From NCBI GenBank assembly GCA_032718475.1, contig JAUCBJ010001208.1, positions 5,028-69,027 of the forward strand: a DNA stretch of 64,000 nt. The letters run 5' to 3'. The DNA is from Nemertoderma westbladi (Eukaryota; Animalia; Xenacoelomorpha). This document shows, piece by piece, positions 35,911 through 58,014 of the stretch (position 1 is its first letter; every line of letters starts with the position of its first letter). The position numbers and the translations under genes were made by a program. Under the pieces are notes generated by a model that was not told the origin of the DNA, searched no databases, and saw nothing but the letters and a program-made list of their open reading frames with translations.

Positions 35911-36049
35911 ATTTATTTAACCATTTAAACTTCGGGATCCCGTTTCAAAAAAGTCGGAATCGGGATTCGATATTTCGCTGGGATCCCGGTTTATCGGTTT
36001 TTTTTAAACATTAGTGCATTGATGAAGCCAGAAGTCTTCCGATTGTTTA

Positions 36050-36594: not shown

Positions 36595-36597
36595 CCT

Positions 36598-37692
36598 GCA
36601 CCCATGACATTTGCTAGATCATCCGCTTCTTCAAGGCCAGTGTCCTTTAAGATGCGTCTCAAGAAAGTCATGGGCTGCCACCATGCTTATTCAGTCCATG
36701 AGGCTGCCAAAGTATAAGTTTATGCACTGGCTGGTCCTCACGGTGAAAGCAATGTCCTGCAAAGCAGAGGCGATTTTGTTCTAGTGTCAAGCTTGGGGGA
36801 ACCAAAGAGACACCTCCAATGTTATATAGTGTCTGGTTGGAGATGTGTGCATTGTACTTGACACAATGTACCCGGCGTAGCATTCTTGTGAATGTGCCAT
36901 CCAGAGATTTGGTGTCCGCAGCAGTTAGAGCCCAACATGGACTCTCATAGAGAGGTACTGGAACTACTGCTGCTCTAAATAATCGGACCTTAAGTTTCCG
37001 ATTAATTCTCGGTGACTTCCAAATCCTGCAAAGCATATTCAAGGCTGCCCAATGCTTTCCCTTACGCATTCGAAGGTCCTCATCTGACTTCCGGATCCAT
37101 GATCCCAGGTAACATAAGTCGTCCACATGCTCAAGCATACCATCCTTTGAGCTTATGCTCATCCGATCAGAGACTTGCTGAGGACTTTCAAAGTTAACTG
37201 TCAAAAGTTTGGTCTTTCTGGAGTTAATAAAAAGACCAACACTAGAAGCAGCATGTTCTAATGAGCTGAGGAGCCGTTGGGCTCCCTCTAATGATTCTGA
37301 GAGTACTCCTAAGTCATCAGCAAAGTCTAGATCAGTTAGGTACTTGGCAGGATTTCCTCGACTTCTGGAGCCAGTAGGTGGAGTTATCATCACCCCATCA
37401 TCATTATGATGATCTAAGGACGTGCGTAGAACATAGTCAACCACAATTATGAACAAGAATGGTGCAAGTGTGTCTCCCCGGAGGACGTCCCATTACACTT
37501 CAAATGGTTCTCTGTCACCGTCAACAGTAGAGACAAATGTTATCGAACCATCGTATACTGATCTGATTGCTGCAATAATTTCATCAGGAATCCCATATAA
37601 TGAAAGTATGCTGAACATACGTGAGAGAGAGACTGAATCAAAGGCCTTGAAGAAGTCAACAAAGATAACAGCCAGATGCCTATCTTTCTTTT
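36598..37692 (-). pseudogene. RTE-clade LINE reverse transcriptase, truncated and frameshifted
   Basis: FVDFFKAFDS, GDTLAPFLFIIVVDYVLR, DLDFADDL, CYLGSWI, RLCFAGHC. Confidence 0.9.
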
Positions 37693-37874
37693 TTGATAAC
37701 TCTTAAATTATCCTTCGGGTATCCTATGGGCTCCATGGTCCCACGAATGCCGAATTGGCCGAATGCCAAAATAAGGATCACGAGACGAATTACAGAAATG
37801 CTGAAATGTTTGATCCTGTTTAAACACTTAGTTAGTAGGCCTACAACATAGTTAGTACAACATGAATAAACCAT

Positions 37875-38170
37875 GCAGTTAGGTGTATAATAATACTGTT
37901 CGGGTTTGCAATTAGCACAACATTAATTTGACCAAGCAGTTAGGTGTATAATAATACTGTTCGGGTTTGCAGTTAGCACAACATTAATTAGACCTTGCAG
38001 TTAGGTGTATAGTAATACTGTTCAGGTTTGCAGTTACCACAACATTAATAGACAATGCAGTTAGGGCTATGGTATATGTGTAGTCTTTACCACCCTTGTA
38101 CTCTAGCGACCTTCTAGAGAATTGGTTAGTTAGGTGTATAGTTGATTTGCATGCGTCTGGAGCAGTTAGC
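37875..38170. repeat. ~60 bp tandem repeat (3-5 degenerate units) at the left edge of the Polinton
   Basis: GCAGTTAGGTGTATAATAATACTGTTCGGGTTTGCA.TTAGCACAACATTAAT repeated. Confidence 0.8.
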
Positions 38171-38619
38171 ACTTTGGACGAAAAAGAGCTCGTTAGCGTT
38201 TCGAGTGGTTTGCCGGTATACGTGTTTGTGCACATTGATATTGGCTTGGAAGGGTAAGAAGTGCTCTACTTCATGGCCACCTATACAAAGAATTGTATCG
38301 ATTATTTGGGTTCTTATTTCGGGTATTAAATATTTAGCGGGTAAAATTAAGCTCTTGCTGTATAAAAATAGCACAGGTCGATTCACCGTGTCCCATTCTC
38401 ACAAATATTCGAGTGTTTAATATAAAGATGTATGATTATTTATTGATTAAAAATTAAATAGTGTAAGAATATGTCATATTCTCTCATAGAGCCTCTACTT
38501 TCCCTATGGTAGGGAATGGGGAACGATTTTCTCTGTATCATAGCAACGTTGTATAATTATTTAACTCTAGCTAGCTGGGAAGACAGGTAGCAAGCTGGCT
38601 GGAGTGTTGAGTGTGTCTC

Positions 38620-39460
38620 AGTAAATCCAATTGTTGGGGTATAACTATATATTAACATGTATTGATGCCTTTAGCAGGCTTGCTTTTGCCTATGCTATGA
38701 AAACAAAAAGGGTATTGAAATTATTAGTATATTGCAAAAAATATTCCAGAAAGGAAAACCAAACAGAATCGCGACTGATCAAGGGTCTGAGTTTCTAAAT
38801 AAATCTGTAAGAAAATATTTAGATACGTTAGGTATACAGTATTACGTAATGTATTCTGTGAATAAGGCGGCTATTGTCGAGAGATTCAATAGAACATTAA
38901 AAACAAAGATGTTCAAAATTTTTACGCAACGAGGAAATAATGTTTGGATTAAAATTTTACCAAAGCTCATTTATGCTTATAATAGGTCATATCATAGGAC
39001 AATAAAAATGACACCTATTGAAGTTAATAAATTTAATGAAACTGAATTAATGAATAGATTATATGGGAAATATAGACAGATTAATCATAAGAAAATAAAA
39101 TTTAAAGTTGGAGATACAGTACGATTATCTATCGCTCGTACTGCTTTTGCTAAAGGCTATCGAGAACAATGGACACATGAATTATTTATTATTCATCGTG
39201 TCAGGTTGGATAGAGTACCTGCGGTAATGTTCGATATTAAGGACAGCGCTGGAGCTATAATAAATGGCTCATTTTGTTCTCACGAACTCCAAAAGGTCCA
39301 CCCGAATAGTAATATTTATCTAGCAATTGATAAAAATATTGGCAAACTTAAAGAACGTGTACGCAATGGGAAGAATATTTAATATTTAGTAAAAAAGAAA
39401 GAATATTTAGTCCGATTCATCGGATCCAAGAAACAGTCGTGGGTACAGCATATTCAATAA
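38620..39460 (+). pseudogene. Polinton retroviral-like integrase (frameshifted; chromodomain-like remnant)
   Basis: YILTCIDAFSR (other frame), IATDQGSEF, KAAIVERFNRTLK, YNRSYHRTIKMTP, FKVGDTVRLS, KGYREQWT, KKEYLVRF. Confidence 0.9.
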
Positions 39461-39711
39461 GCTTAGGTTTATACTGTATATTAATTCATTTTGGTCACAT
39501 ATGACCGTAATTAATCAATATTAACTCGAATGATATTACTATATCTATAGTTCATCCGTTTTAAATAAAGCCAATATAATATTGATCCCGCGCATATACT
39601 GTAGAAGATGCGACAATGAACGTGGTCACAGATGTCTATAATTTAACATTATACTGTACTGTATGTACAATGGAGTCAAGTAGAGAGAGAGCTTAAATAA
39701 TAATAATAATA

Positions 39712-40584
39712 ATGGCCACAGATACATATATCACTCTACTTTCAGATAGCTCATTAAACACTTACCCCAATAATAATCCTAGTGAGTTTACTGTTGATTT
39801 AGCCGAAGAATTATATATTGGTCCAAACGCTAAAATTGGGCTTGCCGAGCTACAATACCAAGCAACATACAGTAATATTACACTGCAAACTCAAATCTCG
39901 CTGTCAATCGGGGTAGATGCAAAAGATGCCAAATTATATAGTTTATTTCCTGGTATGCATAGCTCTATTCAAGTGATTATTGATGATATAAATAAACTGT
40001 TTAATTCTGAAGCGAAATATAGAGATTTCGAATTCATTTTTAATACAAATAATTCTAGAATTAAATTTAAATTTCCTAAAAAGTTGAAAAAAATACAATT
40101 AAGTCTACGTGGTGATTTAATACAAATTCTAGGCTTAAAACCGTTATTGGATCGGAATCATCCAGGTATTCCGAATTGGGATATATACAGTACCACTACA
40201 GTAGATGAATTAAGCAATATAGAACAGCCGATATTAATTTTAAATTATAGCGGACCAAAAATTTCGGAAATTGGCATTTTAGATTTTCCAGCTCCCACGA
40301 ATATAACACGTAATAAAGACACTATCTTTATATATACAGATATTATTAAGAGCTCATTTGTTGGTGACGCTTTAGCTCCGCTCTTAAGAACCTGCCCTTT
40401 AACGCAATTAAATCGAAAATATATTAATCACGATTACGAGAGCATTTGCTATTACCCGTTGTTGAATAAAAAACTAAAAACAATCTTAATTACTTTACGT
40501 GACGGACAAGGCGAATTAATTAATTTTAGCGGAGGTCGCACTGTTATAACACTTAAGTTAATACGGGGTGGCAGTGATGGATGA
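39712..40584 (+). CDS. Polinton minor capsid (penton-like) protein 1
   Basis: YITLLSDSSLNTYPNNNPSEFTVDL; IFIYTDII..SFVGDALAPLLR; ITLRDGQGELINF..GRTVITL. Confidence 0.82.
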   Translation: MATDTYITLLSDSSLNTYPNNNPSEFTVDLAEELYIGPNAKIGLAELQYQATYSNITLQTQISLSIGVDAKDAKLYSLFPGMHSSIQVIIDDINKLFNSEAKYRDFEFIFNTNNSRIKFKFPKKLKKIQLSLRGDLIQILGLKPLLDRNHPGIPNWDIYSTTTVDELSNIEQPILILNYSGPKISEIGILDFPAPTNITRNKDTIFIYTDIIKSSFVGDALAPLLRTCPLTQLNRKYINHDYESICYYPLLNKKLKTILITLRDGQGELINFSGGRTVITLKLIRGGSDG

Positions 40585-41422
40585 ATTCTACGTAAGACTA
40601 CCAAGTAACTCCTGTCCAATTGATTTTCCCCGCAATAGCGCTAGTAATTATCAGATCAATTTCCATGGCGCCTTACCTATAAACCCAAACGAAAACTGGG
40701 TGGTAGGTATAAAAAGTATATTTTACTTAGCTACGTTGCCGTCCATGTATAACAATGTAGAGAATGTTATTTTATTAAAAAAAGGAAAAAAAAATTTTGA
40801 GGATACACTTCCATCCGGTTTGTTCTACAGTATCAATGACATTATAGATTATTTTAACACGGGGGCATTGAAAGATAAATTACAAATAGTTGAAAATACT
40901 CAGCAAAATAGGTTGCAATTTATTTTAGGGAAAACTGTGCGAGAGTTATTTATAGGTCAACAATTAGCCTATTATTTTGGAATTACTGAAAATAATCTCG
41001 GTGCGAATTTAAATCCAAATTTTAAAATTATTTTGAAGACGAAAAATAATATAAAGGGTTATTTAATAAAGGTTATCGGAAATGGAGAAAAAGCTTACCA
41101 GATGGTATTTTTATGCCCTCAACCACCCAATTCTATTCCAGAACCTAAGTCGAACATGTACGTGACTACTAATATAATTGAAAATCAATATATTAATGAC
41201 TTTGGTTTAGCTTTACTTCGTCGTGTTGCGATACCTGATGACGTGAAATATGGTAGCGTAATAAATAAAGAATTTGTCAAGGATACAATTCATTATATCC
41301 CTGTAAAAAAATCATATAAGATAACATACATTCATATTGAAATAACAGACAAAGAAGGAAAAGATTTGAATTTTGAATACGGGACAACATCTATTACATT
41401 ACACTTTAAACGAATAAATTAA
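40577..41422 (+). CDS. Polinton minor capsid (penton-like) protein 2
   Basis: FYVRLPSNS..FPRNSASNY; MYVTTNIIENQYIND..LLRRV; IHIEITDKEGKDLNF..TSITLHFK. Confidence 0.8.
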   Translation: MDEFYVRLPSNSCPIDFPRNSASNYQINFHGALPINPNENWVVGIKSIFYLATLPSMYNNVENVILLKKGKKNFEDTLPSGLFYSINDIIDYFNTGALKDKLQIVENTQQNRLQFILGKTVRELFIGQQLAYYFGITENNLGANLNPNFKIILKTKNNIKGYLIKVIGNGEKAYQMVFLCPQPPNSIPEPKSNMYVTTNIIENQYINDFGLALLRRVAIPDDVKYGSVINKEFVKDTIHYIPVKKSYKITYIHIEITDKEGKDLNFEYGTTSITLHFKRIN

Positions 41423-41423
41423 A

Positions 41424-41984
41424 ATGGATTCTGATTTATTTCACAGATACAGTAAACCTCAATATGGTGGTGCAGACTCGAATCTTGCTGTTTTTAAAGG
41501 TGGTAGAAGTACGAGAGGCTCGACGCAAGTTCCTGTTTTTCGAGGTGGTTCATATATTGACCCTTACGGTCAACAAATTGGCGCATTTGGTCCAAACTTA
41601 AAACAACGTCATTTTCAGCGTTATCCTAGAGGTATGAGGACAAATCAACACGGAGAAGGTATATTTACAGACGCTTTATCAACATTGAAAAAATTTGGTA
41701 AGCCATTAGCTAAAAAAGTTTTACAAAAAGCTTTACCATTTACCACAAAATTTATGAGACAACACGTAATACCAAAAGGTAAGCGGGTCTTACATCAGCA
41801 GGCTAATACGGTTATTAATAAAGCATTAAATAAAATGAAACCGTCAACAAGGTCAGTTGTAGAAAAAGTTTATAGAGATTTAAAGCGACCCGCTAGACCA
41901 ATGTCTATGAACATATATCATCGACGTAGTAAAAAGAGAAATATAAAAGGCAAACTGAAACACTGCGAAAAAAGTATTTTTTAA
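41424..41984 (+). CDS. Basic core-protein-like gene (PW/adenovirus pVII-like)
   Basis: Arg/Lys-rich; QYGG, FKGG, FRGG and QHGEGIF adenain-type cleavage-like motifs; located between penton and major capsid; ends ..SIF. Confidence 0.65.
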   Translation: MDSDLFHRYSKPQYGGADSNLAVFKGGRSTRGSTQVPVFRGGSYIDPYGQQIGAFGPNLKQRHFQRYPRGMRTNQHGEGIFTDALSTLKKFGKPLAKKVLQKALPFTTKFMRQHVIPKGKRVLHQQANTVINKALNKMKPSTRSVVEKVYRDLKRPARPMSMNIYHRRSKKRNIKGKLKHCEKSIF

Positions 41985-41986
41985 TA

Positions 41987-43246
41987 ATGTCAATTATTAA
42001 GGAATTAGATTTATTTTCTACACAGCCAATACAGACTGAATTTAAAGTAAAGCATTATGAAACAATTTACCCCATATCTAATCTCAGAAGTGAGTCTAGG
42101 GAAGTCACGTTCCTTGTACCGAGATCCAATGAATTCTATACGAAACTGCAAGATGCGTTATTAATTACAAAATGTACTGTACGGTGGGATAGACGACTTG
42201 AAAATTCCCATATATATATGCTGAATTACCCCGCTGAAACTATGTGGAGTGATATTAAAATAGACCTTAATGAGAAGCAGGTTGAAAATAGCAATAACCA
42301 TTATTTCTACAAGTCGTACTTATCCAATTTATTATTTACAACTTACGAGGATAAAAATGGGCTACTGGGTGCGGGTGGCTTTCATCAGCCTTTATCTGAG
42401 CACGGAAATGAAATTGATCCAAGCGCGCATCCTATTGGCGATGCCTTTAGTAAACAAATGCAATTTGTAAGTGGATTGACGATTGATTTTGATACTGAAA
42501 GCAAAATAATACAACCCGGGTATGATTTAAGAATGCATTTTAGAAAAGTATCAAATTCGTTTATTTTTAAAATCACTCCAAACGCAAACGCGGTGACAAA
42601 TCTTCGGCTAGAATTAGATGAAATAAAGATCCTAATCCCTAGAATGGAGGTTAATCCGGTAATAGAAAGCAGTCACCTAAAAGGTTTAGAGAGTTACGAT
42701 ATTGAATATCAATTCCAAAAAAAGGAGGTTACAACATTTACTATTCCCGCTCAAACCACAAATTACACCCAAACAAACATATTTGATGGTAAAAAACCCA
42801 AATTAGTTATTATCGGCTTCATAACAAATAACGCTTATTCGGGAGAATTAATTAGCAATCCCTTGAAATTTGAACATTTTAACCTTAGACGCGCGGAACT
42901 GATTGTAGACGGTCTTCCAGTAGGTGGTGTAATATACGAGCCTAATTTTACAGATGGAACATATATTTTTGAGTATACTCAATTAATGAAGAACATTAAT
43001 ACATATATTAATGGTTATGGAGGTAATAATATAGACCATGAAACCTACTTAGGTAATTGCCCCATCCTATCCTGGGACTTAACCGCCGATGGCTATGTTA
43101 GAGATCCGCAACCGTCGATATATACTAACGGCCAATTAAAATTAAGATTTGCCGAACCGTTGGTTGAAACCATAAATGTAATCGTTTTTAATATTTATGA
43201 TCAATCATTAAGTTTAAATAGCAGGAAAGAAATACATATCGATTAA
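41987..43246 (+). CDS. Polinton major capsid protein (double jelly-roll)
   Basis: ELDLFSTQPIQT..YPI; FDGKKPKLVIIGF..NAYSG..NPLKFEHF; WDLTAD; LRFAEPL.ETINVIVF; 419 aa. Confidence 0.8.
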   Translation: MSIIKELDLFSTQPIQTEFKVKHYETIYPISNLRSESREVTFLVPRSNEFYTKLQDALLITKCTVRWDRRLENSHIYMLNYPAETMWSDIKIDLNEKQVENSNNHYFYKSYLSNLLFTTYEDKNGLLGAGGFHQPLSEHGNEIDPSAHPIGDAFSKQMQFVSGLTIDFDTESKIIQPGYDLRMHFRKVSNSFIFKITPNANAVTNLRLELDEIKILIPRMEVNPVIESSHLKGLESYDIEYQFQKKEVTTFTIPAQTTNYTQTNIFDGKKPKLVIIGFITNNAYSGELISNPLKFEHFNLRRAELIVDGLPVGGVIYEPNFTDGTYIFEYTQLMKNINTYINGYGGNNIDHETYLGNCPILSWDLTADGYVRDPQPSIYTNGQLKLRFAEPLVETINVIVFNIYDQSLSLNSRKEIHID

Positions 43247-43248
43247 GT

Positions 43249-43704
43249 ATGTTATCTACAGAGGACCTTGATATGTTTCCAGTGGGTGGTCACTATTTGG
43301 GAGCGTTTCCAGCTAATAAATTACCTAAATTAGATAATAATAATAAGCGAAGAGATTATGGGTTAATAGTAAATACCGATAAAGAGCATCTGCCCGGGAT
43401 TCATTGGATCGCAATATATATACGAGATAATGAGGCTGAATTATTTGATTCATTTGGATCAAAATATCCAAACAGATGCATCGAAAAATGGCTTGAGAAA
43501 AATTCCGCAAGATGGCGTACTACTCGCAAACAATTTCAAGACCCTAGGCGGACCACATGCGGTCTATACTGTCTTTATTATTTGGTAAATCGAATTCACA
43601 CAAACTATCCAATGAGTGCGTTTACAAATAATGTGGAAATAAATGAAATAATATTATATAAATGGCTTATTAATTATTATAAAATAAACCAACAAGCGTT
43701 GTAA
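43249..43704 (+). CDS. Adenain-like cysteine protease
   Basis: LGAFPANKLP, IVNTD..PGIHW, FDSFG, QFQ..TCGLYC (H-D-Q-C catalytic set). Confidence 0.9.
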   Translation: MLSTEDLDMFPVGGHYLGAFPANKLPKLDNNNKRRDYGLIVNTDKEHLPGIHWIAIYIRDNEAELFDSFGSKYPNRCIEKWLEKNSARWRTTRKQFQDPRRTTCGLYCLYYLVNRIHTNYPMSAFTNNVEINEIILYKWLINYYKINQQAL

Positions 43705-43735
43705 TTAATCATTTAGCTTTTGTTTATCAGATAAA

Positions 43736-44338
43736 ATGGATAATATTATTTTTGTTGATTTTCAATATTTTAAGATAGACAATAAAGAGTATCCGGTAGT
43801 ATTTAAAGAATTTGCTATATTCGATTCTAATTACACCAAAACTAATGTAAAGACGTTTTTAATTAAAGGCCCACCTAATATTAAGTTATCAGCTTTAGAT
43901 GTAGCTCACGTAAACAATTTACGAGACATGACTTCTCATTTGCCCTGGGACTACGGTGACATTTCGCAAGATGACTTTAAAAAATATATGAAGAGACATT
44001 TAAAATATAAAAAAAATATACATGTATTTGGGTTGCTGAAACGGGCAATATTAGTTTCCCAACTTGATGTTCTCGCACCAAATTCGGTGGAGAAATTGGG
44101 AATATATAAGCAATATCATGATTATTTAACCCCCTGTCGCTTCCACGATCAATTTACTACAGTAGAAAATAAATGTGCGTTCCACTTAAACATAAAGGAT
44201 AACTGTCTGCGATACTGCTCAGCAAAACGCATTGGGGGGTATGAGATGCTACACTTTTTCATGAGAAAGCGTTTAACTGCGACTGATGATGATAAACAGA
44301 AAGAAATAACTGCAGTGGAAGATGTACTCATACTGTAG
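43736..44338 (+). CDS. DEDD/RNase H-fold-like protein typical of Polintons
   Basis: IIFVDFQYF..VFKEFAI, HLPWDYGD, IHVFGLLK, C-terminal C..H..C. Confidence 0.55.
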   Translation: MDNIIFVDFQYFKIDNKEYPVVFKEFAIFDSNYTKTNVKTFLIKGPPNIKLSALDVAHVNNLRDMTSHLPWDYGDISQDDFKKYMKRHLKYKKNIHVFGLLKRAILVSQLDVLAPNSVEKLGIYKQYHDYLTPCRFHDQFTTVENKCAFHLNIKDNCLRYCSAKRIGGYEMLHFFMRKRLTATDDDKQKEITAVEDVLIL

Positions 44339-45475
44339 GTTTAACTGCGGTGGAAGATGTACTCTTACAGTAGGTTTACTCTAAGCTTGTAATGTGATGG
44401 GATAATATATTTGTTTTAATGTCAATAAAAAATAATAAAAACATTAAAATCTTTTTTTATATCGCTGTTTACACTCACAAACACAACACACCTACCGGTA
44501 GCCCCCTGTTGTATCAGAGTTTAACTACCAGTAGCTAGCTGACTTTACACATACAGACATATAGAATGGCGGAATGGCGCCCTTCTAGACTGACAGCAAC
44601 CACAAGGCTTTAGCACAAGGCTTACTAAATAATAAAATTAAATTAACTCAACATGGAGGGTTCGTGAATGCCGCATTAGAGAGGCCCACCTAACAATAGG
44701 CCTACTGGTACCGAGGGCCCTGTAGCCCTCTTCCAACCGTATACCAGTACTTGAGGATAGAGCAAGAGCATACCGGTTTCTTTGATTTAAGGATTACACT
44801 ATTACACTTGAATGCTTCCAATTTTCTGTTTACAACTTTAATTGGTCTAATCTACATTACTGCGGGCGGGCTACTACTGTCGCATAGGTAAGCCTATACA
44901 GCTATTGTTAACTTTATGCGGGGCCCTTTTTCACATGTTGACCCAATATGGTTTATGGTTAACCTTTAGTACTCGTGGATAGGTAAGGTGCACTTTCATT
45001 CGGTTAGGCATATAGGCCTAATGACTTACTCCTCAACTGAAAGTTGACTAGCTCATTGATACAATAGGTGTGGTTAGGTACCGGTAGCGCTATAGGTCCT
45101 ATAAAATCCCCTCGCACTCTCTGTTACTAACTTTCTACATTCACTCTATGTTGTATGCTTCTTTACAGTTAACCTTTAGAACTCTTGGTTAGGGGCGCCA
45201 TCATTCAACCAGTCATATAATGGTTCCACTCGGATACAATAGGTGTGGCTCGCAGTATACCTAACTAAGCCTATATAAAATCCACCCCATTCTCTGTTAC
45301 TAACATTCACTCTATGTTGACGGGGGGACTATATAAAACATAGTTAATTTATTTATGTATTCGCTTTTTTTAAATTATATATAAAATAGATTCGGTCTAC
45401 TAAGTTTTATAAGCAACAATAACTGATAACAATAACAACAACAACAACACTAAATTTATTACTGTATTATACTTT

Positions 45476-45892
45476 TTATAGTCCTATATGTGGGTCCCTC
45501 TGTAGAGTTTCCTCCATTACCGGTACCTGTAAATGGTTGTTTATAGGCCTAACTTCTACCGGTCTTTGTGTTGGTATATTGAAGTGAAGCGTATCATCAA
45601 CATCATTCTCCCAATTTTCACTAGAGGGTGAGCTTCCCGATATTTGCGGTTGTATCTTTATAACAAGCGAGAAATCTTTTGAAATTTCAACCTTTGTAGG
45701 CGATAAAGGTAGACCATCTACTTGACCTACTCCATATTCTACCGAAGTAAACCCAATCTCAAATTTGTGGTTTATATATCGCAACTCCATCTCAGCAATA
45801 TTGGATGCTGAGAGATATGTTTCGTCGCTTGATTGCAATTCGATTTTGATACAACTTTTCAACTCACGGTTATTGAAAAAGGCGAATGTCAT
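45476..45892 (-). CDS. Hypothetical Polinton protein (138 aa)
   Basis: ATG-initiated ORF co-oriented with the pPolB block; no recognisable motif. Confidence 0.45.
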   Translation of the reverse strand: MTFAFFNNRELKSCIKIELQSSDETYLSASNIAEMELRYINHKFEIGFTSVEYGVGQVDGLPLSPTKVEISKDFSLVIKIQPQISGSSPSSENWENDVDDTLHFNIPTQRPVEVRPINNHLQVPVMEETLQRDPHIGL

Positions 45893-46575
45893 CTTCGAGT
45901 CGAGGTAAGTTGTCGTCGTCGTCGTAACTAGGTACCGGTAAGAATATCTTTAAATTGAATAGGTAGGCCTACTGATATTTTTTTCTTCTTTTGTTTAACA
46001 AAATTATAGTTCACTGTCAGAAAAATTGAGTTTATATATATTTTTGTAGAGGGTCGCAGAGGTGTACATTACAAAATTCTCATAGTTAACAAAATGCACA
46101 ACATAAACCTTTCCCAGGCGGATTAGCGATATATGCTCTGTTCGTTGTTCTATTCTGAATGTAGGGAGATGCATAGCCGATGTTTTAATGATATGTACCG
46201 GTATACAGACTAGTAACAGATAGGAGGGCATCGTCTTTGACTATGAATGCCAGCACATAGCCCTAATCTTTTCTCACTGAGCTTAGCGTTGCCCGCCGCA
46301 CTCACGCACACTCATAAGTAACAGATGCGCTATTGTAACTCACTCGTGAGCAACAATGCCAAGTTAGCTAGCTAGCTACAGCCCCTGAGTATACTATGCC
46401 TACTTGTGTGTTACAAGCAGCAATCGCTCTACCGAAGTTAATTTCCCCTCAAACTAGTTGTTGATTTAAAAAAAAAAATATTCATAATTTTTTTCCAACC
46501 AATTTAATATATATATATTTTACAGTAAAAATCTCCACCACCAAACAGCAACAACAACAATAAATTTCACTCACA

Positions 46576-47127
46576 CTAATTATATTTTACAACAAAAACC
46601 CTCGCACCAAACAATAATAAATTATTAACCAGTTTGTTGAATATAGGGTAATATATATGAAATTTAAACGGGGAACACATTAATGTACATTTACCGGTGT
46701 AGAAGCAGCAAACAACAACATTATTATTTATTCTGACTTTACAGTTATTGAATATTTCAGGTTCATATATAACTTGAAGTTGCACATTATCAAAGACAAC
46801 ATAAAACCCGGTATTGTTTATCAATAACCTATAGACTACAGACTTAATACTAAAAATATAAGTACATAAATTAACAGATTTTAAAATCAAATTAATACTA
46901 GTTTTATCAAATATATGCTTTTTTACTTTTTGGAAATTATACTTACTGCCTAATAATGTAATACGACCATTTTTAAATATTAATAATGTAGCACCAAATA
47001 TCTTATATATAAACTGATTTGGTTTGAATATGTGTTTACCAGATAATTGATTTTTTAATTCTTTAAAATTAATCGCTAACACTTGCTGGCAACTTATATT
47101 TTTATTTACAATTTGATAATTCATCAT
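46576..47127 (-). CDS. TATA-binding-protein-like protein (183 aa from ATG 47127)
   Basis: Two TBP-like repeats: YQIVN..INFKEL..FKPNQF..GATLLIFKNGRITLLGSK and SVNL..VIYEPEIFN..VVVCCFYTGKCTLM (compare TBP TALIFSSGKMVCTGAK, SYEPELFPG, VLLIFVSGKVVLTG). Confidence 0.72.
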   Translation of the reverse strand: MMNYQIVNKNISCQQVLAINFKELKNQLSGKHIFKPNQFIYKIFGATLLIFKNGRITLLGSKYNFQKVKKHIFDKTSINLILKSVNLCTYIFSIKSVVYRLLINNTGFYVVFDNVQLQVIYEPEIFNNCKVRINNNVVVCCFYTGKCTLMCSPFKFHIYYPIFNKLVNNLLLFGARVFVVKYN

Positions 47128-50100
47128 CAACACTGTCGTCTTTTGGTTCTTCATAAATTGGTATATTTGATATTTGTATAGGTTTTTTGAGGTTTGTTTT
47201 ATAGTGCCCCCAAGGAAGCGAATGATTTTTATTAACCCAATAAAGTTTATCGTCAAAGCTACTGAGTGCAAATTTATTTCTCTTTAAGGTATAAATACGA
47301 TGTAATTTAGATTGAAATCTGTGTATGTTTTTTTTTATTTCTTCATTTGAGTTATATGCTTTTAAATATTCTTCATATATTCGTTTCCACAACAGCTCTT
47401 GTAATACCTTTTGCTCTACGAATATTTTTGTTATTCCATTCCAAAATTGAATATAATTTTGGTCTTAAAAATACTGCTTGTTTAATTTCACGTGAGGCTA
47501 GCTCGTCTTTACAGTAATAGAGTTGGGATTTATTTTTATCACTGTAATGAGGGTGATCCTTAGGGTAATTGGAAGTATCTAAAATATTATTTTTAATTAA
47601 TGCTTTTAAAAAATTATTCTGTGATGTATTATAATAACAACCTATTAAAGAGTCAGTGTCTGATGCAGCAATTTCAATACGACAGTTTAATTCTTTCTCA
47701 ATAGGTAGCAATTTATTGTAAAACAGCTCATACATATCCAATTTAGCCAAGTCCAACACAGCGCTACCAATAAATATAGGCTTATCGAGAGTTACAGAGT
47801 CTTTCACTAATAAATGTCCCGATAATGTATTATTGTATATTATAAATTGTTCATGATTAATACGATTTACCAATTGATCGCATTTATCGTTGCTATTTGC
47901 GATACGAAAGTCACATCGATCTCTTATCTTTTCTATTGATTTGCCAAACAGTGAATTATTGAGCAATTTCGCGACAGCAGTTTCAATGTAACTTTTTGCT
48001 AGGCGCCTTTGATTAATATTAAAATCTATGTAGGGTTTAAATACAAATTCTTGTTGAAAAGAATATAATTTATGTAGTTTAGTAACAATTAATCCATGTT
48101 TTATATAAAATTTTAACAGTTTCAAATGTAAATGATAAAACTCTTTATCAAATTGCGTCAGCAAGAGTTTTGGTGTAGACATCCTATATTTACGGGAGGT
48201 ACCTCTTTGTATCGATAAATTATTAAATTGTTCCCTCATATAAGGTGAAAGCATTGATTCATTTATACTTAAATGCTCTGGGGCTAACGGTAATTGTAAT
48301 GTTTGATCGTGAATAGCTTTAGGATAATTTAAATCACATATTAAAAAATATCCAGTAGATCCATCAATGTCTAAATCTACCAAGTACTCGATTAGTTTTT
48401 CTGGAATTGCATTCTCTAAATGTTTAATACTTACTTCTTTGAATTGCGAGGTGGGTAGTTTTTTACTTAAATTCCCTGAATATAAAGAGTTGAAATCAAT
48501 ATTAAATATATGGCATTCTTCCTTAGTAGAATCATATGTACTTGTTCCTGGTATATTTGATTCTATATAATGCTTTCGACAAAATGAAACACCACCCCTA
48601 ATTGATTTTTCAAAATCTCTATATGTCTGATAATCCTTTATTAATTCTATTTTACATTTATTATATTTTAGTGCGCAATCATAGGTAAATGACGCGATAC
48701 TACAGTAAAAAACCACTTCTAAATCGTAATTTTGTTTACAAACATTCCTAAAATTCTCAAATATATCAGCAAGCAAACAAACATCGAGTTTTAAATAGGC
48801 TAAAAGATAATCTTTGAGATTCACACAGTCGAATTCAACCCATGATAATTCCGCAAACCTATAATCTTCAATTGTACATGTTTTTTGACTTAAGTTACTA
48901 AAAAAATTATTTATAAATGGTAAACTAGTATCATTAAATTTATTAATATCTGTCAAGTACTCGTATGGAAATACTCCTTTCCGTTTAATTGTTGAGTTAT
49001 TCAAGTTTGGATAAAAATATTTCATTTCTTGTAGAGTAATAGGTAAAATTGAGCTTATATCATGACTCGCTACATCCTTTGTTGAACACTCAACTAAATT
49101 ACTTAAAGAAAAGCTTAAAAATTGATATGTGTCCAAGAAACGTAACTCAATTTTTTTAGAAGTGTTTTTAATTGGGATAAATGCATTCAGTGAAATATAT
49201 CGTTCTGTATTTCTCGGTATAACCTTTATATCCCAATCTGTGTATTTCTTATCTCTAAATCCGGTTTGTAATATACAATGTATATCGTAGTTGTTGGAAT
49301 TGTGCCCGCAAAGTATATACAGGTATCGTTTCAATGATAAACTTCGGTTACAACTATTATAGGCTGCCGCAATATATTTACCTATAATATGTGAATGATG
49401 TCTGTTTTTCCCAACATTATTATTTAAAGTAACATTACAATAGAAACAGAATTTTGCTTGTTCAAAATTTACAAAATCAATATTAGTAAATGACATGGTT
49501 TTATGAGTATATATGTCTGACCAACAACATAATTCAGTTAAATCAGTATATAATGAATCTAAGAAATCTTGAATACAATTATTATTATTATTTGTCTTTA
49601 CAAATGTTTTCAAATGACATTTTGGTGGGTCAATTAATTCAGTATTGGGAACAATTAAATAACTCACAACACACGGTATATGCTCCTGTATAAATTGATT
49701 ATTAACTGAAGGTTGTAAGATACATTCTATATCAAAGTAGGTGACAAACAATGGGGATAAGGTTCTATCTAAATTTGTAAAACTAATGTGTGTTCTTTTT
49801 TTATTAGGTAGTTTCTCGCGTTGACTTCTTCCTTGGTAGCATACAAGACGGTGTCGATGAAGAACTTCCGCTCGAAAAAAATGAGCCAAGCACCTTTCAC
49901 AAAATTGCCTACCTCGAGTATGAAGAGCTCTCGTATTCAGCAATCGATTCAAGTTAGTTATGCAAACATAATGATTCAGTTTAGGTACATTGTTATTTTT
50001 TACTACAAGTAATATATTTAATAACTGTTTATCAGGTGTAATTTTACTAAACGGAGGTTGTCTTAATATAGATAGATACAGGAGTGTGTTTGTTGTCGTT

Positions 50101-51162
50101 ATTCCAACATAGTAAATTAATTATATATTTTGAATTTTGTTTTTCAAAAAGTTTAATCGCTAACTGCCACTCTGTTGGATAATCTTTGTTCCCATTGTCA
50201 AAAATGAAATGACTCATATAATTTTTGTACAATGAAGTATGGTTTTTGTTGTTTTTCACTTTGCTACCAAATTTTGCGGATATAATAGCCCATTTGAAAC
50301 AATCATTATCAGCTGTTTGTATATTTATTGTACATTTTTTAGCTGATAAAGCCTTAGGTAATTCCATATATCCATGCCCCTTATATAGTAACGACCTACA
50401 CTTAGATTCAGCTAATTTAATTTCAACCCTTAATAAAGATTTAATACGCCACCCCGAACCACGTGTGTTAAAGATGGCTATTTTTTGTAATATATTTCCC
50501 AGCACATACTCAAACCATGTGTCAAAACTTTGCGGTGAATCTACAGTATTAATAGCACCACCGGAAGAATTAAAATAAAAGGTTTCCAATTGCTTGCCTT
50601 CTGAAAAATGTGATCTGTACATTAATACATTTAAACCTAACCACAGTCTAAGAACATTCATTTCTTTCAATCTATCTAATATTAACTGAAGAATATTACC
50701 TCGAATTTGTGCTAATGCTGTTTCTACATCGGGATAATCTCTAGAAGTTGGGAGGTCGTGGACATAAATTTCAAGACGATTATCGTGAGCTTCTTGTTCC
50801 CGCGTAAAAATTGTTGCGCATGTACCAAGAGCCACCCTTAAGTTTTTTCTGGATATTATATTTTTATGTTGCGGAAATTTACGCTTTCTTGTGTAGTAAC
50901 ATTTCAAGTGACAGTCGTGTCATATATAATTCTCATATGTATACTCTTTATTACAGGTAGAACAAGTCAATTGATAGGTGCGGAACTCCATTTCTTTACA
51001 ACCAGTAGTTGATTCATGTCGTTTACAAATTTCGCTGCATGAAGTCACGACATGACACTTAAAACAAGAATAACCTTCAAAATGTGACTGTAGGTGGCGT
51101 AAGTAATTATGTCTAGTTACATTCATATGACAGAATGAACAACATATTGTTATTTTATCCAT
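47102..51162 (-). pseudogene. polB: Protein-primed family B DNA polymerase polyprotein (C2H2 fingers, TP/OTU-like region, EndoVII-like insert, exonuclease, polymerase), broken by one stop and frameshifts
   Basis: FDIEC, HNSNNYDIH, RKGVFPYEY, YLKLDV, IRGG, DFNSLYS, KLLNNSLFGK, SDTDSL, KGI, ALSSFDDK; ORFs 50920-51162 and 50047-50907 share a frame across a TGA. Confidence 0.93.
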
Positions 51163-51354
51163 ATTGAAGTTTGTTTAGATAAATAATAATAATAATAATA
51201 ATAATAAAGTATGTCCAAAGATTAAAATAAAATGAAATGATACGATATTGACTATATCTAAACATTTATATGATAGCGAGGGAAATAATTTTAAACCAAT
51301 CACCAATCGCTTATGACTATTGGAAACCGCAAAGAGTTTAACTTATGATTAGGT

Positions 51355-52416
51355 TTACATATTAGGATAATAATAAGGTTTCCATGGAGAATTAGTAACA
51401 GGCTCTACTAGAACTGGGTTACTGACAACTTTATGTTTCTTTGCAGGTGATGCGTTGGTAAATTTACTCGATGATCTTGGCTTCCGAGGTAATATTTCAG
51501 GAAAGACCTGTTGCGGTTGAGAGCAACTCTCTTCAACATCCGGATTAGGTGATGGGATCTCTACGAATGCTTTAGGTTTATCCAAAAGGACAAAACCGTC
51601 AACATGGGCTTCAGTAAGAGAAACGCCATCCATCGATTCTTTGAGAAAACTAATATGGGCTTTATCATTCAAGTAATGCAACTCAATAGAATTTCCGCCG
51701 GCACCTACTTCAGTAGAATTATCGGTGTTGGTGATAATAATTTTTTTATTATTGGTTTTAATCATTTTGAGCCGGTCTGATAATTGAATGATATTTTTAT
51801 CAAAAAGATGCTTGTCTGTTTCATCGACTTGGTTGTCCCACTCTCGCAACAAAACGGTTAGTTCCTGTTTTGACAAATTGAAACCCGTATAATAGTTAAA
51901 ACCAACACTATCAGCGTATCTGAGGCTGATTTTCCATAAGCCAACATAGTTGGTTCCTTTAAAAGCTGTTACAAATCCAATAAACTCTGGATTTGATAAT
52001 TCAATGTAGAATTGATCGCTAATAATCTCTAGCGGTGGAGAGATTAATTGCAATAATTTCCCTCTGTATTGAATTAGAACTTCAGTAAAAGCTTTGTGAA
52101 CTTTGCATTTGCCTTGTTTCTGAACGTAAACATCACCCGATGTGGGGTTGATGGAAATATTCAAATTTCCCCGCGCAAAACGAAGAGTTGGATATATCCT
52201 ACCTGGTATAATTGCTGGTCTGGATTGATGTTGGTTGTTGTTGGTTGTTTCTAGAATGTCTAACAAATAGCGGGTATCTTGATGGGAAAAACAAATTGAT
52301 TCGTTGTCCTCCTGAGATTCCACAATAAAATACTTGCTGTGTACGACGGTACAAGTATATTTATTGTAAGTAAATTTCCAGCTATTTGTTGCTCCGGTTT
52401 TTTGCGTTAAGGCCAT
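51355..52416 (-). CDS. PC4-like ssDNA-binding / coactivator-fold protein
   Basis: FIGFVTAFKGTNYVGLWK...YTGFNLSKQELTVL resembles PC4 (V..FKGKV.IDIR...KGISL..EQW); NLS-like PAKKHK in the tail. Confidence 0.5.
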   Translation of the reverse strand: MALTQKTGATNSWKFTYNKYTCTVVHSKYFIVESQEDNESICFSHQDTRYLLDILETTNNNQHQSRPAIIPGRIYPTLRFARGNLNISINPTSGDVYVQKQGKCKVHKAFTEVLIQYRGKLLQLISPPLEIISDQFYIELSNPEFIGFVTAFKGTNYVGLWKISLRYADSVGFNYYTGFNLSKQELTVLLREWDNQVDETDKHLFDKNIIQLSDRLKMIKTNNKKIIITNTDNSTEVGAGGNSIELHYLNDKAHISFLKESMDGVSLTEAHVDGFVLLDKPKAFVEIPSPNPDVEESCSQPQQVFPEILPRKPRSSSKFTNASPAKKHKVVSNPVLVEPVTNSPWKPYYYPNM

Positions 52417-52479
52417 AATAATAATAAATACGAAAAATATTACAAGTGATAAATTTTAAACCGTATCGCTGTAATAAAT

Positions 52480-52884
52480 TGACACCATAGTTCTCACTCT
52501 AAAATTGTGTTGGTCGGAAGACGAGACCAAAGAAAAATGATGCTGAGTTCGACATTAGGTATCGACCAAAAAACAAAAATTGAGCTACTAATAAACTATT
52601 TAACAAAAATCTTGATCTTAATTTGCGATTTGAAATATCCCAAAGATATTCATGATCGTACATTAGAACTACCCTTAGCCCCGTCAGTATCAAGATTTGT
52701 TAAATAGTTTAAATAGTAGCTCAGATTTTCGTTTTTAGGTCGATACCCAATGCTGGAATCAGTATCATTTTATGAGGTGTCGTTTTCCGACCAACGAATA
52801 TACAACGAATAAGATAATGTAGAAATTATTAAGGAAATAACACAATTTCAGAGTGAGAACAAAAAAAATTAGATATGGTATCAA
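52480..52884. repeat. Long imperfect inverted repeat with a polB-derived loop
   Basis: GTTCTCACTCT.AAATTGTGTT / AACACAATTTCAGAGTGAGAAC; GTTGGTCGGAA / TTCCGACCAAC; GAGCTACTA..AAACTATTTAACAAA..TCTTGAT / ATCAAGATTTGTTAAATAGTTT..TAGTAGCTC. Confidence 0.85.
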
Positions 52885-54285
52885 TATATTACCATGAAGA
52901 TTACAAGTGATGAATTTTAAATAAAAACATTCAGTTATATAAGTTTCTGAATACGTGATGTGGCATAGTCAACGTAGAAGAGATGGGATGTGGCATAATG
53001 GACGAATAAGAAAAGAGATGGGTTGCAATGTGGATAGGAAATACGTGAAAGAATATGAATCATAGGGTTGTGTGTAATAATAATCAATAATTATAATAAA
53101 AACGCACAGTATAATGTTAGTAGTAGTAGTAGCCTTTCAATATGGCAAAGATGCTGCGGGATCGGTTAGCTTGAGTAACTACTATGGAAATGCTCGTATA
53201 CGTGTAGTTGACACGAGGCGGAATTTCATGCACATGTATCATACTGAGTGGTTGGTTTGTTGGTTTGGCGACGGCTGTCGTGGAGTTGGCAATCGATATA
53301 ATATAATATATGCGCGATGCGAGTAGTTGGTGGCCACGTCGTCGTTGTCACCATCATATACAGTATACAGCGGTGGTGGTGGTGGTGATGGTGACGTGGT
53401 GAAAAGGTGAATAACATTAGGGTTAGTAGTTAGTTAGTCAGTCAGTAAGGCGGGCATCCGCGAGGTTAGGCTACGCTACGCTACGATTGGTTGATGGCAA
53501 CTGCCGATCGATGGATGGTGGTGACAGATGTGGCGCGCACCGCAATTTAGCACCGGAATTTGGCATTTTTTAATAGCCCTCCGAATGGAATGTGCATAGC
53601 CCAGGCTTAGGGAGGACTTTGTTGGGGGCCATGCTTTATCTACTACTAATGGGAAACTACTTTGGAGGAATATGAAATATCAAGGTGGTCAACAAAGTAA
53701 AATTGTTTATTGTCCATCAAATGAAACATTTGCCACTTTAGGTTGGCCTTTTACAGTTATCTATATAATGGATTTTATAACTGGAGAAATCATTAATAAA
53801 ATTATGAATGAGATGACCACATATGACATTACTACAGTACTATTGCTTGCTTTTCAAATAATCACCATCATAATTGGTAAGTTGCATAATAATAATTTGA
53901 AAATCGTTAGGACTGTACTTATTGCTGTAAAGAAAATCGTCTGTTTGTTTGATTGTCTGTGTGTATGTGAACGTTATTATTGGAATGGAAGGGATCATGC
54001 TCTACTTGGTGAAGGGTCAAGTATACTATAACTATATACTACAAGTGATACTATAACTCTGTCAAACTGTCCTTCTTATGTGCTGAAAGTCTTCTAATAG
54101 CCAGCTTGCTGACACTGATGACATCTAGTTCTATAAATAGTCACATATTGTAATGCCTCAAAACACATTGGCTGAGGCATTACATGAGGTCTCCTCCCTA
54201 CTTATTGCTAGTAGGGTGGAGCCCTACTATTTAATTTTAGAAATTCAAATATAACAAGTCAGGAAAAATATCCTCTCCTAATTAA

Positions 54286-55892
54286 CCCTATTAGTACCGG
54301 GCTATAAAATGTAATATAATAATTTATTATTGTTATTTAATAAAATGTTGTACAAATACCGGGGGGGGGGGGGTCATATTGACTATGACATATTGATTGT
54401 TTGTACGTAGGTATCACTAGTCTGGATCCGACTGAAAAAAAAATTTTGAGAAAATGTACTGGGGTGGTTGGTTATATTGCAGCACCAAAATTACAAGTAG
54501 TGCACAATTTTCACAAAATGTGAAAGTTACCTTTTTCGGCTAATTGTTTTTCAATACAGCATTTCTGGGGCGCAAAATACATTGGAAAATACTTAAAAAT
54601 GATATGATTACTATAAATGGCTGTTTAGTCCTCTCTGCGTAGGAAAAAAATGAAAAAAAACTAGTAAACAGCACTTTTCAGTTAAAACACAAAATTTTTA
54701 ATTCATTTATACGATGCTATAAATTCACATTTTCAGATTTTCTAGGGCGCTGATTCTAATGGAAAACATTTCTAATATGCCAGATCATTGCTACTTGTAT
54801 TTTTAGGCGTAATTTGGCAAATTTTGGTGCTAGCACCAAATTTCGAACCCATCACCAAAAAGTACAAGTTTGCGAAGTCCAGTGCTGTTTTTATTGATTC
54901 CATTGGATTCAGTACCCTCATAAACCCGCATAACGCAAGAAACAAGATGATACTATCTACTGATCAATTTGCTTATTTTTCAAAATTTGGTGGTGACACA
55001 ACAATTTTCACCCACCGGCGAAAAATACCAGTTTGAAAACTCTTATGGAATTTTTACTGATTCCATTGAATTTAGAACCCTGACGAACCCGTATAACGCA
55101 AGAAACAAGGTGACACAATCAATTGATATATTTGATGGTTTTCTAAATTTGTGCTAGCACCACATTTTGCACCCACTTCCGAAAAATACAAGTTTGAGAT
55201 GTCTATTTCGATAATTATATATTCCATTGAATTCAGAACAGCCATAAACCTCTAAAACGCAAGAAATAAATTGTCACAAGCAATTTTATCTATTGAATGA
55301 ATTTTCAAAATTTCGTGCTAGCACTAAAATTTCCACACAGCACCGAAAAATACAAGTTTGATACGCTTGGTGCAACTCGTATATATTTCATCGAAACCAG
55401 AACCCCAAAAAACCCCAATTGCGTAAATAACAAGTTTCAAACAATCAATTTACAAAATTGACATATTTCAAAATTTGGTGCTGGCACCACAATTTGGCAC
55501 CCGCCGAAAAAAACAAGTTTGAAATTTCTAAATCAATTTATATGAATTCCATCCAATTGCTAACACCAAAAAACCGGTGTAAATCAAAAATAGAGATGTT
55601 ACAATTCATATATAATGAAATTTTCAAAATTTTCAATGAATTTTTTTTTTTCAATGAATGAAATTTTCAAAAAACGTCTCAAAAAAAGTGCCAAAAGTAG
55701 GGTTAAAAAATGGTGCTATAACTCGATTACTACCCAATATTTTTGAATACGGTTTTTATTACTAGGAAGACAATGGTTTTTTAGGAAAAGTCCTAAAGTT
55801 TCAGATTCCCAACTGCGTTTGTTTCAGAATTATAATAAAAAAACCACGGGGGGGGGGGGTCATATTGACACCCCCCCCCCCCCCCCCCCAGG
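54286..55892 (+). mobile_element. Non-autonomous piggyBac-like element, copy 2
   Basis: TTAA at 54282-54285 and 55893-55896; collinear with 24782-26359. Confidence 0.8.
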
Positions 55893-58014
55893 TTAAGCAT
55901 GTATATATTTTAAATATGTACATATTTAAATTATGTATGTATTTTAATTATTTATAAATTTTTATATATATATACATATTTTATTATTTATCTTTTAATG
56001 CTTCACTTTGTGAATTAAAGAATCAAAGATCATATTGTTTTTATTATTACTAAAATAGTCGATTTTGGAAATATTTTATGAATGGGAGAATCTTTTAGTC
56101 TCGTTAAGCCACTAGACCAAGCTGCTGCTTATTTTATAATTTTTTAAATAAATTTTTTAATATTTTATAAATTATTGTTGCTAATTAGATGTTATGTAAT
56201 GCTTAGATCCAACTCTTAGAATATGTTATTTTACACATCGTTCATCTTTTTAATTAGTATTATTAGACATTTGGTTGTTATATAAATGCGATATTTTCTA
56301 ATTTATATGGGACTATAATATAATGAATTGTTATTGTTTGCACATTACATGAGAGTTCTATATCACGAGCGACCGAATGATAAAACGAAATTTATCATTT
56401 TTATAGATACAAAGTGTGTAAAAGAAAAAAACGTCTAACTAAGGGAAAACAATTATTGCCACCATTTGTCTGCACACCTGAGAGTCACTTCCCCCGAATT
56501 CGCAATAGAACCAGCAATAAATTTCCAAAATTACTGCGGCCTAATTTGAATGCACAGCACAGGTCTGTTGTGTCATTCTCTATAACAACTAACTACAGTA
56601 CTGTAGTAAGTATCATCTACTTCTATTTCATATCCAATTTAGCTAGCATACAATACAGTAGTAGTCAGCAATATGAATTGTTATGTCCACTCTCGCACAA
56701 CGTCGTGTATTGAACGCAAGTAGATCTCACAGAGACCCCCCGCAGGGTGTAATTAATACGAAGCGAATTAATGTAATGGAAAGATGCCCTTCGTGACCTT
56801 TCGTAACCTCACGTAAATAGCGTGAAAAATAATTGTTTAATAAGGAATAACATTTTCAATGCAGTGAAGCAAGAAATTAAGATCAATAATGGAACGTACA
56901 ATGAGATAATGGTAAACCATCATATCTTCCTATACATATCAAACAAAATATGCACCAATTCCACAAACACAATAAGTACTGTATACTACTACAAAGACCG
57001 ACTGTAATACCAAAATATACATAATAAATATTTATTAAATGGTAAATAAATTAGAATTATTGTAATAATGCTTGATTCTAAAAATATTCCAAAGTATTAT
57101 TAGATTGGTAAACAGGATTTTACATATTCAAGTGTTAATAATGAAAATTAAAAAATAAATATATAATTAATTCAATAATTATATTAATTACAATAATAAT
57201 AATTAAATAATTAATTCCTAAATTGTAATATTACTCAACGCCGTTAGAATTACAGTATTAACAGCGAGTTGTTATTTAGCACTTTACAACTTTTGAGGAC
57301 ATTAATGCATTGTATTTACCTGTACATTTAGTATTGTATTGGTGTTGTAATGTCCCTTGTTTATGTGGTAACCAATGACGGCGAGCTGTAAAGTTACGGC
57401 GTCATTGGTTACCACGTAAACAATAGGTGGCATTCATAATTAATGATGTAATATTATGGTTTTAGTGTGTTATGAGTATATTTTATTATGATTATATGTT
57501 AGTATATTATGGTATTATGGTTTCTTAGCAAGAATCTCATCCGTATTTGGATTCTTTGTGAACACCATCTGTCTATCCACGTACAGAAGAACGTTTAATT
57601 CACCAGCAATGCGAGTCACAATAGACCTATGCCCCCCACTCCGTGGCGACGCTTTAATTGCGTTAATGAATCTGACATAATAATTATTATACAGTACAGT
57701 TTATTTTAAGTTAAATTGGCCATTTAATTAGGTCCCGGCACCAAAATGTAAGGGAAATACCCAAACATGAAACAGTACGACACTGTCAAATATAATAATA
57801 CGTAAAAGGTCTCATAAACTAATAACAATAATAAATAATATATATAATATATAAATATAATAAATATATATATATATATATAGAGAGAATATCGTTTATT
57901 TGAAAAAGATAGAGAGAGCTATCGAAAGCTAATAATAAAAAATAAATTTTTAGTGATAGATCAAATAAGTTGTCACCTTTTGAATTGTTAAAATATTATT
58001 ATATTTATATATAT

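Follow-up and report, generated by a model that had tools for sequence, protein, structure and literature searches.

A decayed Polinton (Maverick) of ~15 kb in the genome of the xenacoelomorph Nemertoderma westbladi carries an intact gene for a diverged, two-lobed TATA-binding protein (TBP) homologue, and the element family has maintained this gene under purifying selection. The element lies in a 64,000-nt stretch of contig JAUCBJ010001208.1 (GenBank assembly GCA_032718475.1, positions 5,028 to 69,027 of the forward strand), here called the window, and all coordinates are those of the window unless another locus is named. Judged from its residues, the protein looks capable of bending DNA and contacting TFIIB, with an altered base preference. 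Our favored reading, to which we assign a probability of roughly 0.55, is that the Polinton TBP binds and bends promoter boxes of its own element and would recruit host TFIIB and RNA polymerase II (Pol II) to them.

An intact TBP gene that overlaps the end of polB

The TBP-like open reading frame (ORF) occupies 46576-47127 on the minus strand and encodes 183 amino acids from the ATG at 47127 to a stop codon at 46576-46578; an alternative in-frame ATG at 47154 would give a 192-aa product. The frame is uninterrupted in the decayed copy, and a run of 183 codons without a stop would arise with P = 2e-6 at the local stop density, so this is not a chance ORF. A preliminary description, made from the sequence of the window, had proposed an intronless (a statement on the ORF) TBP-like protein of this length with two repeats, and both quoted motifs were located: TLLIFKNGRITLLGSK corresponds to residues 47-62, while YEPEIFN and CFYTGKCTL correspond to residues 121-127 and 141-149. 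The same description had the ORF overlapping the last codons of the gene for protein-primed DNA polymerase B (pPolB), which proved correct. The final pPolB frame stops at 47102-47104, giving an overlap of 26 nt (53 nt from the ATG at 47154) with TBP in the +1 frame; pPolB itself is frameshifted in the window copy, where this stop is reachable only beyond a frameshift near 47376. The TBP frame is open for 43 codons 5' of its first ATG. A pPolB-TBP fusion produced by ribosomal frameshifting through this open stretch was set aside, as it requires +1 slippage and nothing speaks in its favor.

Pfam, fold, selection and ORF-length tests all support the gene, and its identity as a TBP homologue is confirmed. 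The Pfam TBP family (PF00352) matches the ORF in two stretches with 34.1 bits (curated cut-off 22.9, E 2.4e-8). When the single sequence was aligned to a cellular TBP profile with hhalign, a probability of 91.7% was obtained, as compared to at most 0.9% for 20 shuffled sequences. All 30 matches in an ESM Atlas feature search were TBP clusters (best score 0.94). Among 1.84 billion representatives only two weak matches were found, both to proteins of 170-171 aa that their source names TBP; the protein-database search covered TBP forms that are neither longer nor fused. A direct search of the ORF against 75 candidates returned no homologue, and in the PDB sequences phmmer matched nothing but myosin, by chance. 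No matches were obtained in viral_contigs either, whether scanned with single sequences of TBP, major capsid protein (MCP) and pPolB or with the alignments A2 and A4. A fold model computed from an 88-row TBP alignment (pLDDT 76.7) contains the two-lobed saddle, with a root-mean-square deviation of ~5 Å and with helix H1' absent from the prediction. As had been suggested as a check, this model was compared to known structures, and the TBP fold was borne out: Foldseek ranks 1-44 are all TBP-containing entries (best E 1e-8, TM ~0.55), and the top five VIA-align matches are all TBP (Z 10.6-12.9), with the next at 7.5.

The protein shares less than 30% identity with any TBP, has an unusual composition and sits on a very long branch of 2.1-4.5 changes per site, and the trees fail to place it. 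The phylogeny proposed in the preliminary description was run with an indecisive outcome: in approximately unbiased (AU) tests, neither placement with the eukaryotic TBPs (p 0.16) nor a single clade of Polinton TBPs (p 0.28) was rejected. Because of the long branch and these tests, the trees do not separate one origin from several for the Polinton TBPs. Among the rows labeled 'arch' in these trees only P0065 and P0080 are named archaea, and animal TBP-related factors (TRF) were left out.

DNA-binding and TFIIB-contact residues

Residues were mapped by alignment to the Dictyostelium TBP P0105, for which an offset of 40 gives back the positions listed for yeast in Table 1 of PMC12529657. All four DNA-intercalating phenylalanines are retained (F39, F51, F126 and F142, corresponding to yeast F99, F116, F190 and F207), as is the pair of stirrup glutamates in the C-lobe (E122 and E124, aligned to E146 and E148 of P0105), whose role in TFIIB contact is taken from Ravarani et al. 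2020 (PMC7221094). The preliminary description had singled out these two sets of residues for inspection, and both are present in full. Also retained are N69 (N8, gap-free alignment), L114 and the Gly-Lys/Arg turns.

The base-reading face is a different matter. In yeast numbering, the changes are V71>N, V122>T, T124>L, P191>N, L205>C, V213>T and T215>M, together with a probable V161>C, the call for which depends on the Asn register. In the alignment used, all eight hydrophobic base-reading positions (V71, V122, T124, V161, P191, L205, V213 and T215) are therefore altered, and the protein is not a canonical host-type TBP. Three residues are deleted after F39. The H2 region of the N-lobe, the site of the basic patch for TFIIA, Brf1, Mot1 and TAF1, is Lys-rich but shorter, and its register is unreliable.

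Purifying selection on the gene

Copies of the element were seen through contigs of public sequencing runs, which were chosen with the TBP region. Over the TBP stretch, contigs from three samples, all of one organism, reach summed depths similar to those of polB, contig depth not being a copy number, and the TBP-polB junction is bridged by contigs from two studies (X4 record 20 and X3 record 22). Of 79 differences among the copies, 40 were listed, 37 of them inside the TBP ORF. Seventeen of these 37 are synonymous as compared to 9.2 expected (p 0.002), none creates a stop codon (2.3 expected), and none touches any of 13 key codons; at high-frequency sites, 10 of 15 are synonymous (4.6 expected). 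The indels listed for the ORF come down to three single-base insertions, which fall in a 12-nt stretch and together add one codon. The excess of synonymous differences, the lack of stops and the untouched key codons show that the gene is under purifying selection in this family.

TBP genes in other Polintons

A scan with the nearest short TBPs identified three further Polinton loci from two lineages (L001-L003). In each, a TFIIB gene directly follows the TBP gene and the pair lies between capsid and integrase genes; the two genes are adjacent and overlapping (L001:2987-4224, L002:5261-6372 and L003:5858-6969), with Pfam matches to TFIIB and its zinc ribbon, and the TBP has Asn at the position of the first stirrup Glu. 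A second scan, with pPolB, returned 58 loci, 24 of them of at least 10 kb and most partial. One of these, L031, encodes a 150-aa TBP with the motif YEPEIF after its protease gene; the region from ATPase to polB is in view and contains no TFIIB match. The L031 and window TBPs are 19% identical.

Thus, TBP is an accessory gene with a patchy distribution among Polintons. In the four other Polinton loci it is found amid virion genes and not beside polB, and none of the 30 loci with at least 800 nt past polB has a TBP gene there (flanks were examined in 36 of the 58 pPolB loci). Within the same organism, contigs from other samples do have the TBP gene adjoining the pPolB end. The survey of conservation and synteny called for in the preliminary description therefore gave a divided answer, as the gene recurs in four other Polinton loci and in contigs from other samples while the overlap with polB is absent in distant relatives. 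Because no other Polinton TBP adjoins polB, the overlap is lineage-specific, and we consider it a minor detail.

As separate observations on these loci, the L031 contig is filed in a bacterial metagenome-assembled genome (MAG), probably as a contaminant of eukaryotic or viral origin. It belongs to a set of 38 loci (L024-L061) with Polinton-type pPolB matches in GTDB bacterial and archaeal MAGs, likely mis-binned contigs. Locus L043 also encodes a gene with a phospholipase A2-like domain (5864-6424).

Candidate promoter motifs

In L031, TATAAAC precedes 7 of 11 genes, and none of 300 permutations was as strong; between 900 and 8300 of that locus all seven copies of GTATAAAC are on the coding strand, with a box before nearly every gene of the virion block. 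Among the window genes, no exact word within 130 nt upstream was significant (best family-wise error rate, FWER, 0.33; 0.88 in another test). When the search was extended to 250 nt upstream, TATATTAAT was found four times, always on the strand that codes for the virion block (FWER 0.07). These plus-strand copies, at 39477, 40420, 41189 and 43004 (39477..43012), lie 157-245 nt before the ATGs of the penton 1, penton 2, core and protease genes and represent a weak candidate for a late-promoter box. For the suggestion that the viral TBP may drive capsid gene expression, the window offers only this weak candidate motif. In the same region, TATACTGT occurs three times (39470, 39595 and 39650) within 240 nt ahead of the first penton-like gene.

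A canonical TATAAAA (47197..47203, minus strand) lies inside the 3' end of pPolB, 76 nt before the ATG at 47127, and is a candidate host-type promoter of the TBP gene. It is one of two in 6.5 kb of this strand, with a chance of ~0.02 per 60-nt window, a figure calculated post hoc. An AATAAA (47101..47106, minus strand) overlaps the pPolB stop, encodes N8-K9 of TBP and may be the poly(A) signal of polB, this hexamer being common locally. The two elements would fit a separate, host-driven TBP transcript, a fit that is likewise post hoc.

A proposed transcriptional switch and its alternatives

From the fold, the residues and the selection described above, we infer a DNA target, a partner and a timing as follows. 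Host TBP would transcribe the viral TBP gene early, from the TATAAAA in the 3' end of polB; the viral TBP, with its changed base-reading face, would recognize a variant box ahead of the virion genes and recruit host TFIIB and Pol II to those boxes. The outcome would be a switch from early to late expression that needs no viral RNA polymerase. The retention of the four Phe and both stirrup Glu favors a working promoter factor over a pure decoy, and so of the two roles offered in the preliminary description, a basal transcription factor of the element's own or a decoy, the residues point to the former, although the small integrating virus it envisaged is not, in this copy, an active one. On a broader scale, some Polintons may run a one-protein late-transcription switch, in which a bare, rewired TBP works on host TFIIB and Pol II and which would be the smallest such system. 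Sister lineages would add a TFIIB, with the stirrup Glu changed, or use that of the host, and each family would have its own TBP-box code, here TATATTAAT. We advance this generalization tentatively, with the odds leaning against it.

Several observations weigh against the proposed promoter function. The single-sequence fold model is unusable (pLDDT 40), and the better model was built on a TBP alignment and is hence partly circular, a circularity from which the Pfam match and the single-sequence hhalign test are free. Strands are predicted in place of helix H1' (model pLDDT 60-72), and the second central Asn (yeast N159) is ambiguous, being N86 by eye and T89 by MAFFT. The TATATTAAT motif is weak at the FWER given above; three copies out of four consist of Tyr-Ile-Asn codons (synonymous-shuffle p 0.022), and the stretch from the first box to the penton ATG contains several other ATGs. 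In L043 (1-12545), TTTAAAA precedes 7 of 10 ORFs (FWER 0.007) with no TBP detected in the part of the locus examined, and in a motif test on 32 sequences strong motifs were also found in loci without a detected TBP. Such a motif does not require a viral TBP, and the link between motif and TBP is weakened. Finally, the association in which both stirrup Glu are kept and no TFIIB is seen (window and L031) or Asn is accompanied by a TFIIB gene (L001-L003) is a comparison of two lineages with two.

The left arm of the window copy, including the ATPase gene, is absent, and a gene for a viral TFIIB may have disappeared together with this arm. The protein would then have been half of a private TBP-TFIIB pair as in L001-L003, where the two genes are adjacent, and nearly all TBP-bearing viruses also have TFIIB according to PMC7221094. 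That very adjacency speaks against such a loss, as the window TBP has polB on one side and a 138-aa ORF on the other, without a TFIIB signal, and so do the two host-type stirrup Glu and the TBP-only gene set of L031, which is in view from ATPase to polB. We regard a lost partner as unlikely, if the least strained of the alternatives. A decoy or competitor would bind host TFIIB or TATA boxes and dampen host transcription, or would shield the element against regulators of the host, with no activation of viral genes. Retention of the stirrup Glu while the DNA face and the length of helix H2 have changed is what such a protein might show, and a convincing cognate motif was not found in the window; yet the four intercalating Phe are retained and untouched by the 37 listed differences, and L031, the TBP-only relative, has a per-gene TATA variant. 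A decoy role appears quite unlikely on this evidence.

The place of the gene beside polB is unconserved (none of 30 loci), the four other Polinton TBPs lie among virion genes, and retention of the TFIIB stirrup would be unneeded for a purely architectural protein. These points make it improbable that the protein is a DNA-bending factor for replication or packaging, for instance at the termini, that is co-expressed with pPolB, even given the same-strand overlap with the polB end and a frame open for 43 codons before the first ATG. The very long branch, the unusual composition, the decayed surroundings and the AU test that leaves a eukaryotic grouping standing (p 0.16) could each be expected of a functionless, decaying fragment of a captured host TBP or TRF. 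The synonymous excess with no stops among the copies, the listed indels, three single-base insertions summing to one codon, and the key residues retained at less than 30% identity to any TBP render this very hard to credit.

Relation to known TBPs

As in eukaryotic and archaeal TBPs (PF00352), the protein has a two-lobed saddle, four intercalating Phe, the first central Asn and a YEPE stirrup. Unlike them, it is encoded by a mobile element and lacks an N-terminal extension, and it differs further in its low identity, the deletion after F39, the shorter H2, the strands predicted for H1' and the change of most base-reading positions. Most large double-stranded DNA (dsDNA) viruses that bear a TBP encode their own RNA polymerase. 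With the TBPs of these viruses, some of which are among its BFVD fold matches, the protein shares divergence and conserved Phe; unlike them, it keeps both Glu, with no TFIIB seen and no RNA polymerase gene detected. TBPs of the Nucleocytoviricota mostly lack the TFIIB-contact Glu and are accompanied by a viral TFIIB (Ravarani et al. 2020, PMC7221094); Polintons are unmentioned in the main text of that paper.

The closest working analogy is ORF24 of KSHV (Kaposi's sarcoma-associated herpesvirus), a viral TBP that has a more polar face and, together with host Pol II, recognizes a variant TATA box (PMC12529657). Both proteins have the four Phe and a more polar DNA face, and the V213>T change is shared with gammaherpesviruses. 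ORF24 differs in that it is a multidomain protein of 752 aa, itself binds Pol II as part of a six-protein complex and is without the TFIIB-contact Glu, whereas the window protein is a bare 183-aa core with them. A TBP-like gene in a Polinton-related element is indicated by the legend to Fig. 5 of Starrett et al. 2021 (PMC8502044), in which 'TBP' is the abbreviation for a gene in MELD viruses with adintovirus-like PolB; it is known there from this abbreviation, the text carrying no analysis of it, and a search of one supplement for TBP gave no match. A literature search combining Polinton or Maverick with TBP or TFIIB returned only this legend and the preprint, with figures, subscription journals, Repbase entries and bioRxiv supplements being outside its reach. 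Viral TBPs are thus already established, and a description of Polinton TBPs was not found in the literature searched.

None of the papers searched deals with how Polintons, which have capsids and no RNA polymerase, time the expression of their virion genes. If the proposed function is correct, elements 15-20 kb in size would join herpesviruses and giant viruses in viral TBP mimicry and would be a natural source of TBP variants whose DNA specificity is altered.

The Polinton copy

The Polinton context given in the preliminary description is sound, with pPolB, an rve integrase, capsid-like genes and an adenoviral-type protease all present. The plus strand carries the truncated integrase, two penton-like genes, a basic ORF, a capsid-like gene, the protease and a 200-aa ORF, and the minus strand carries the 138-aa ORF, TBP, pPolB and a 353-aa ORF. 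The copy is a decayed insertion and not an active virus: pPolB is broken, the 5' part of the integrase is absent, and neither an ATPase nor a terminal-repeat pair was found. The pPolB gene (47102..51162, minus strand) has frameshifts near 47376 and 50050 and an in-frame stop near 50920. It has 670 relatives at E <= 0.001, 33-40% identical with the best at 40%, many with PF02945/PF03175; those with names come from insects, one mollusc and one sea spider (33-36% identity). The rve integrase (38640..39448, plus strand) is interrupted and lacks its 5' part (PF00665, E 2e-4; tblastn E 6e-39 to the L031 integrase), and contigs diverge left of ~38640, the truncated left end of the copy.

Next on the plus strand are two minor capsid (penton)-like genes at 39712..40584, similar to genes at the matching place in L001, L002 and L031, and at 40577..41422, identified by sequence similarity; the penton label is presumed from position and Polinton gene order. 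They are followed by a basic 186-aa ORF (41424..41984) that is probably core-protein-like by composition and position, and by a major capsid protein-like gene (41987..43246, E 3e-40 to its L031 counterpart), labeled again by Polinton gene order. Capsid identity rests on similarity to the matching genes of L001, L002 and L031, not on fold. The cysteine protease of adenovirus type (43249..43704) matches PF00770 above cut-off with E 7e-6. The 200-aa ORF (43736..44338) is weakly like the ORF after TBP in L031 (E 0.07) and may be exonuclease-like, judged by a motif. A pyrimidine-rich tract at 43710-43736, with a CAG end six bases before the ATG of this ORF, resembles a splice or trans-splice acceptor.

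On the minus strand, the 138-aa ORF downstream of TBP (45476..45892, from the ORF list) is assigned no function by Pfam. The 353-aa ORF upstream of pPolB (51355..52416) had been called PC4-like, a label that found no support, as Pfam, PHROGs, a PDB sequence search and the ESM Atlas gave no sequence-level PC4 match; a possible resemblance is seen by eye at residues ~150-195. Upstream of this ORF and inside the element is an imperfect inverted repeat of ~290 nt (52509-52795, 73%). No match to a packaging ATPase and no TFIIB signal was found in the window, nor was a pair of terminal inverted repeats or a target-site duplication, the left end being truncated near 38640; Rfam had no match in 36000-56000. 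On the minus strand, AGTAGTAG at 53640..53647 has no partner inverted repeat in the window and is a possible right terminus, as judged by a terminus motif.

Other repeats in the window

Left of the truncated integrase are three 61-nt tandem repeats (37870-38052), and the surrounding 37500-38066 is heavily covered by contigs and probably part of another repeat. Pieces of long terminal repeat (LTR) retrotransposons with DUF5641, an integrase zinc finger and a CCHC knuckle, together with a reverse transcriptase fragment of a long interspersed nuclear element (LINE), lie at 5088-8657, 11347-15973 and 36668-37390. A 1.4-kb non-coding repeat with internal 163-nt subrepeats is present in two copies (24950-26334 and 54465-55889) that are 91-97% identical and is possibly a non-autonomous DNA transposon.
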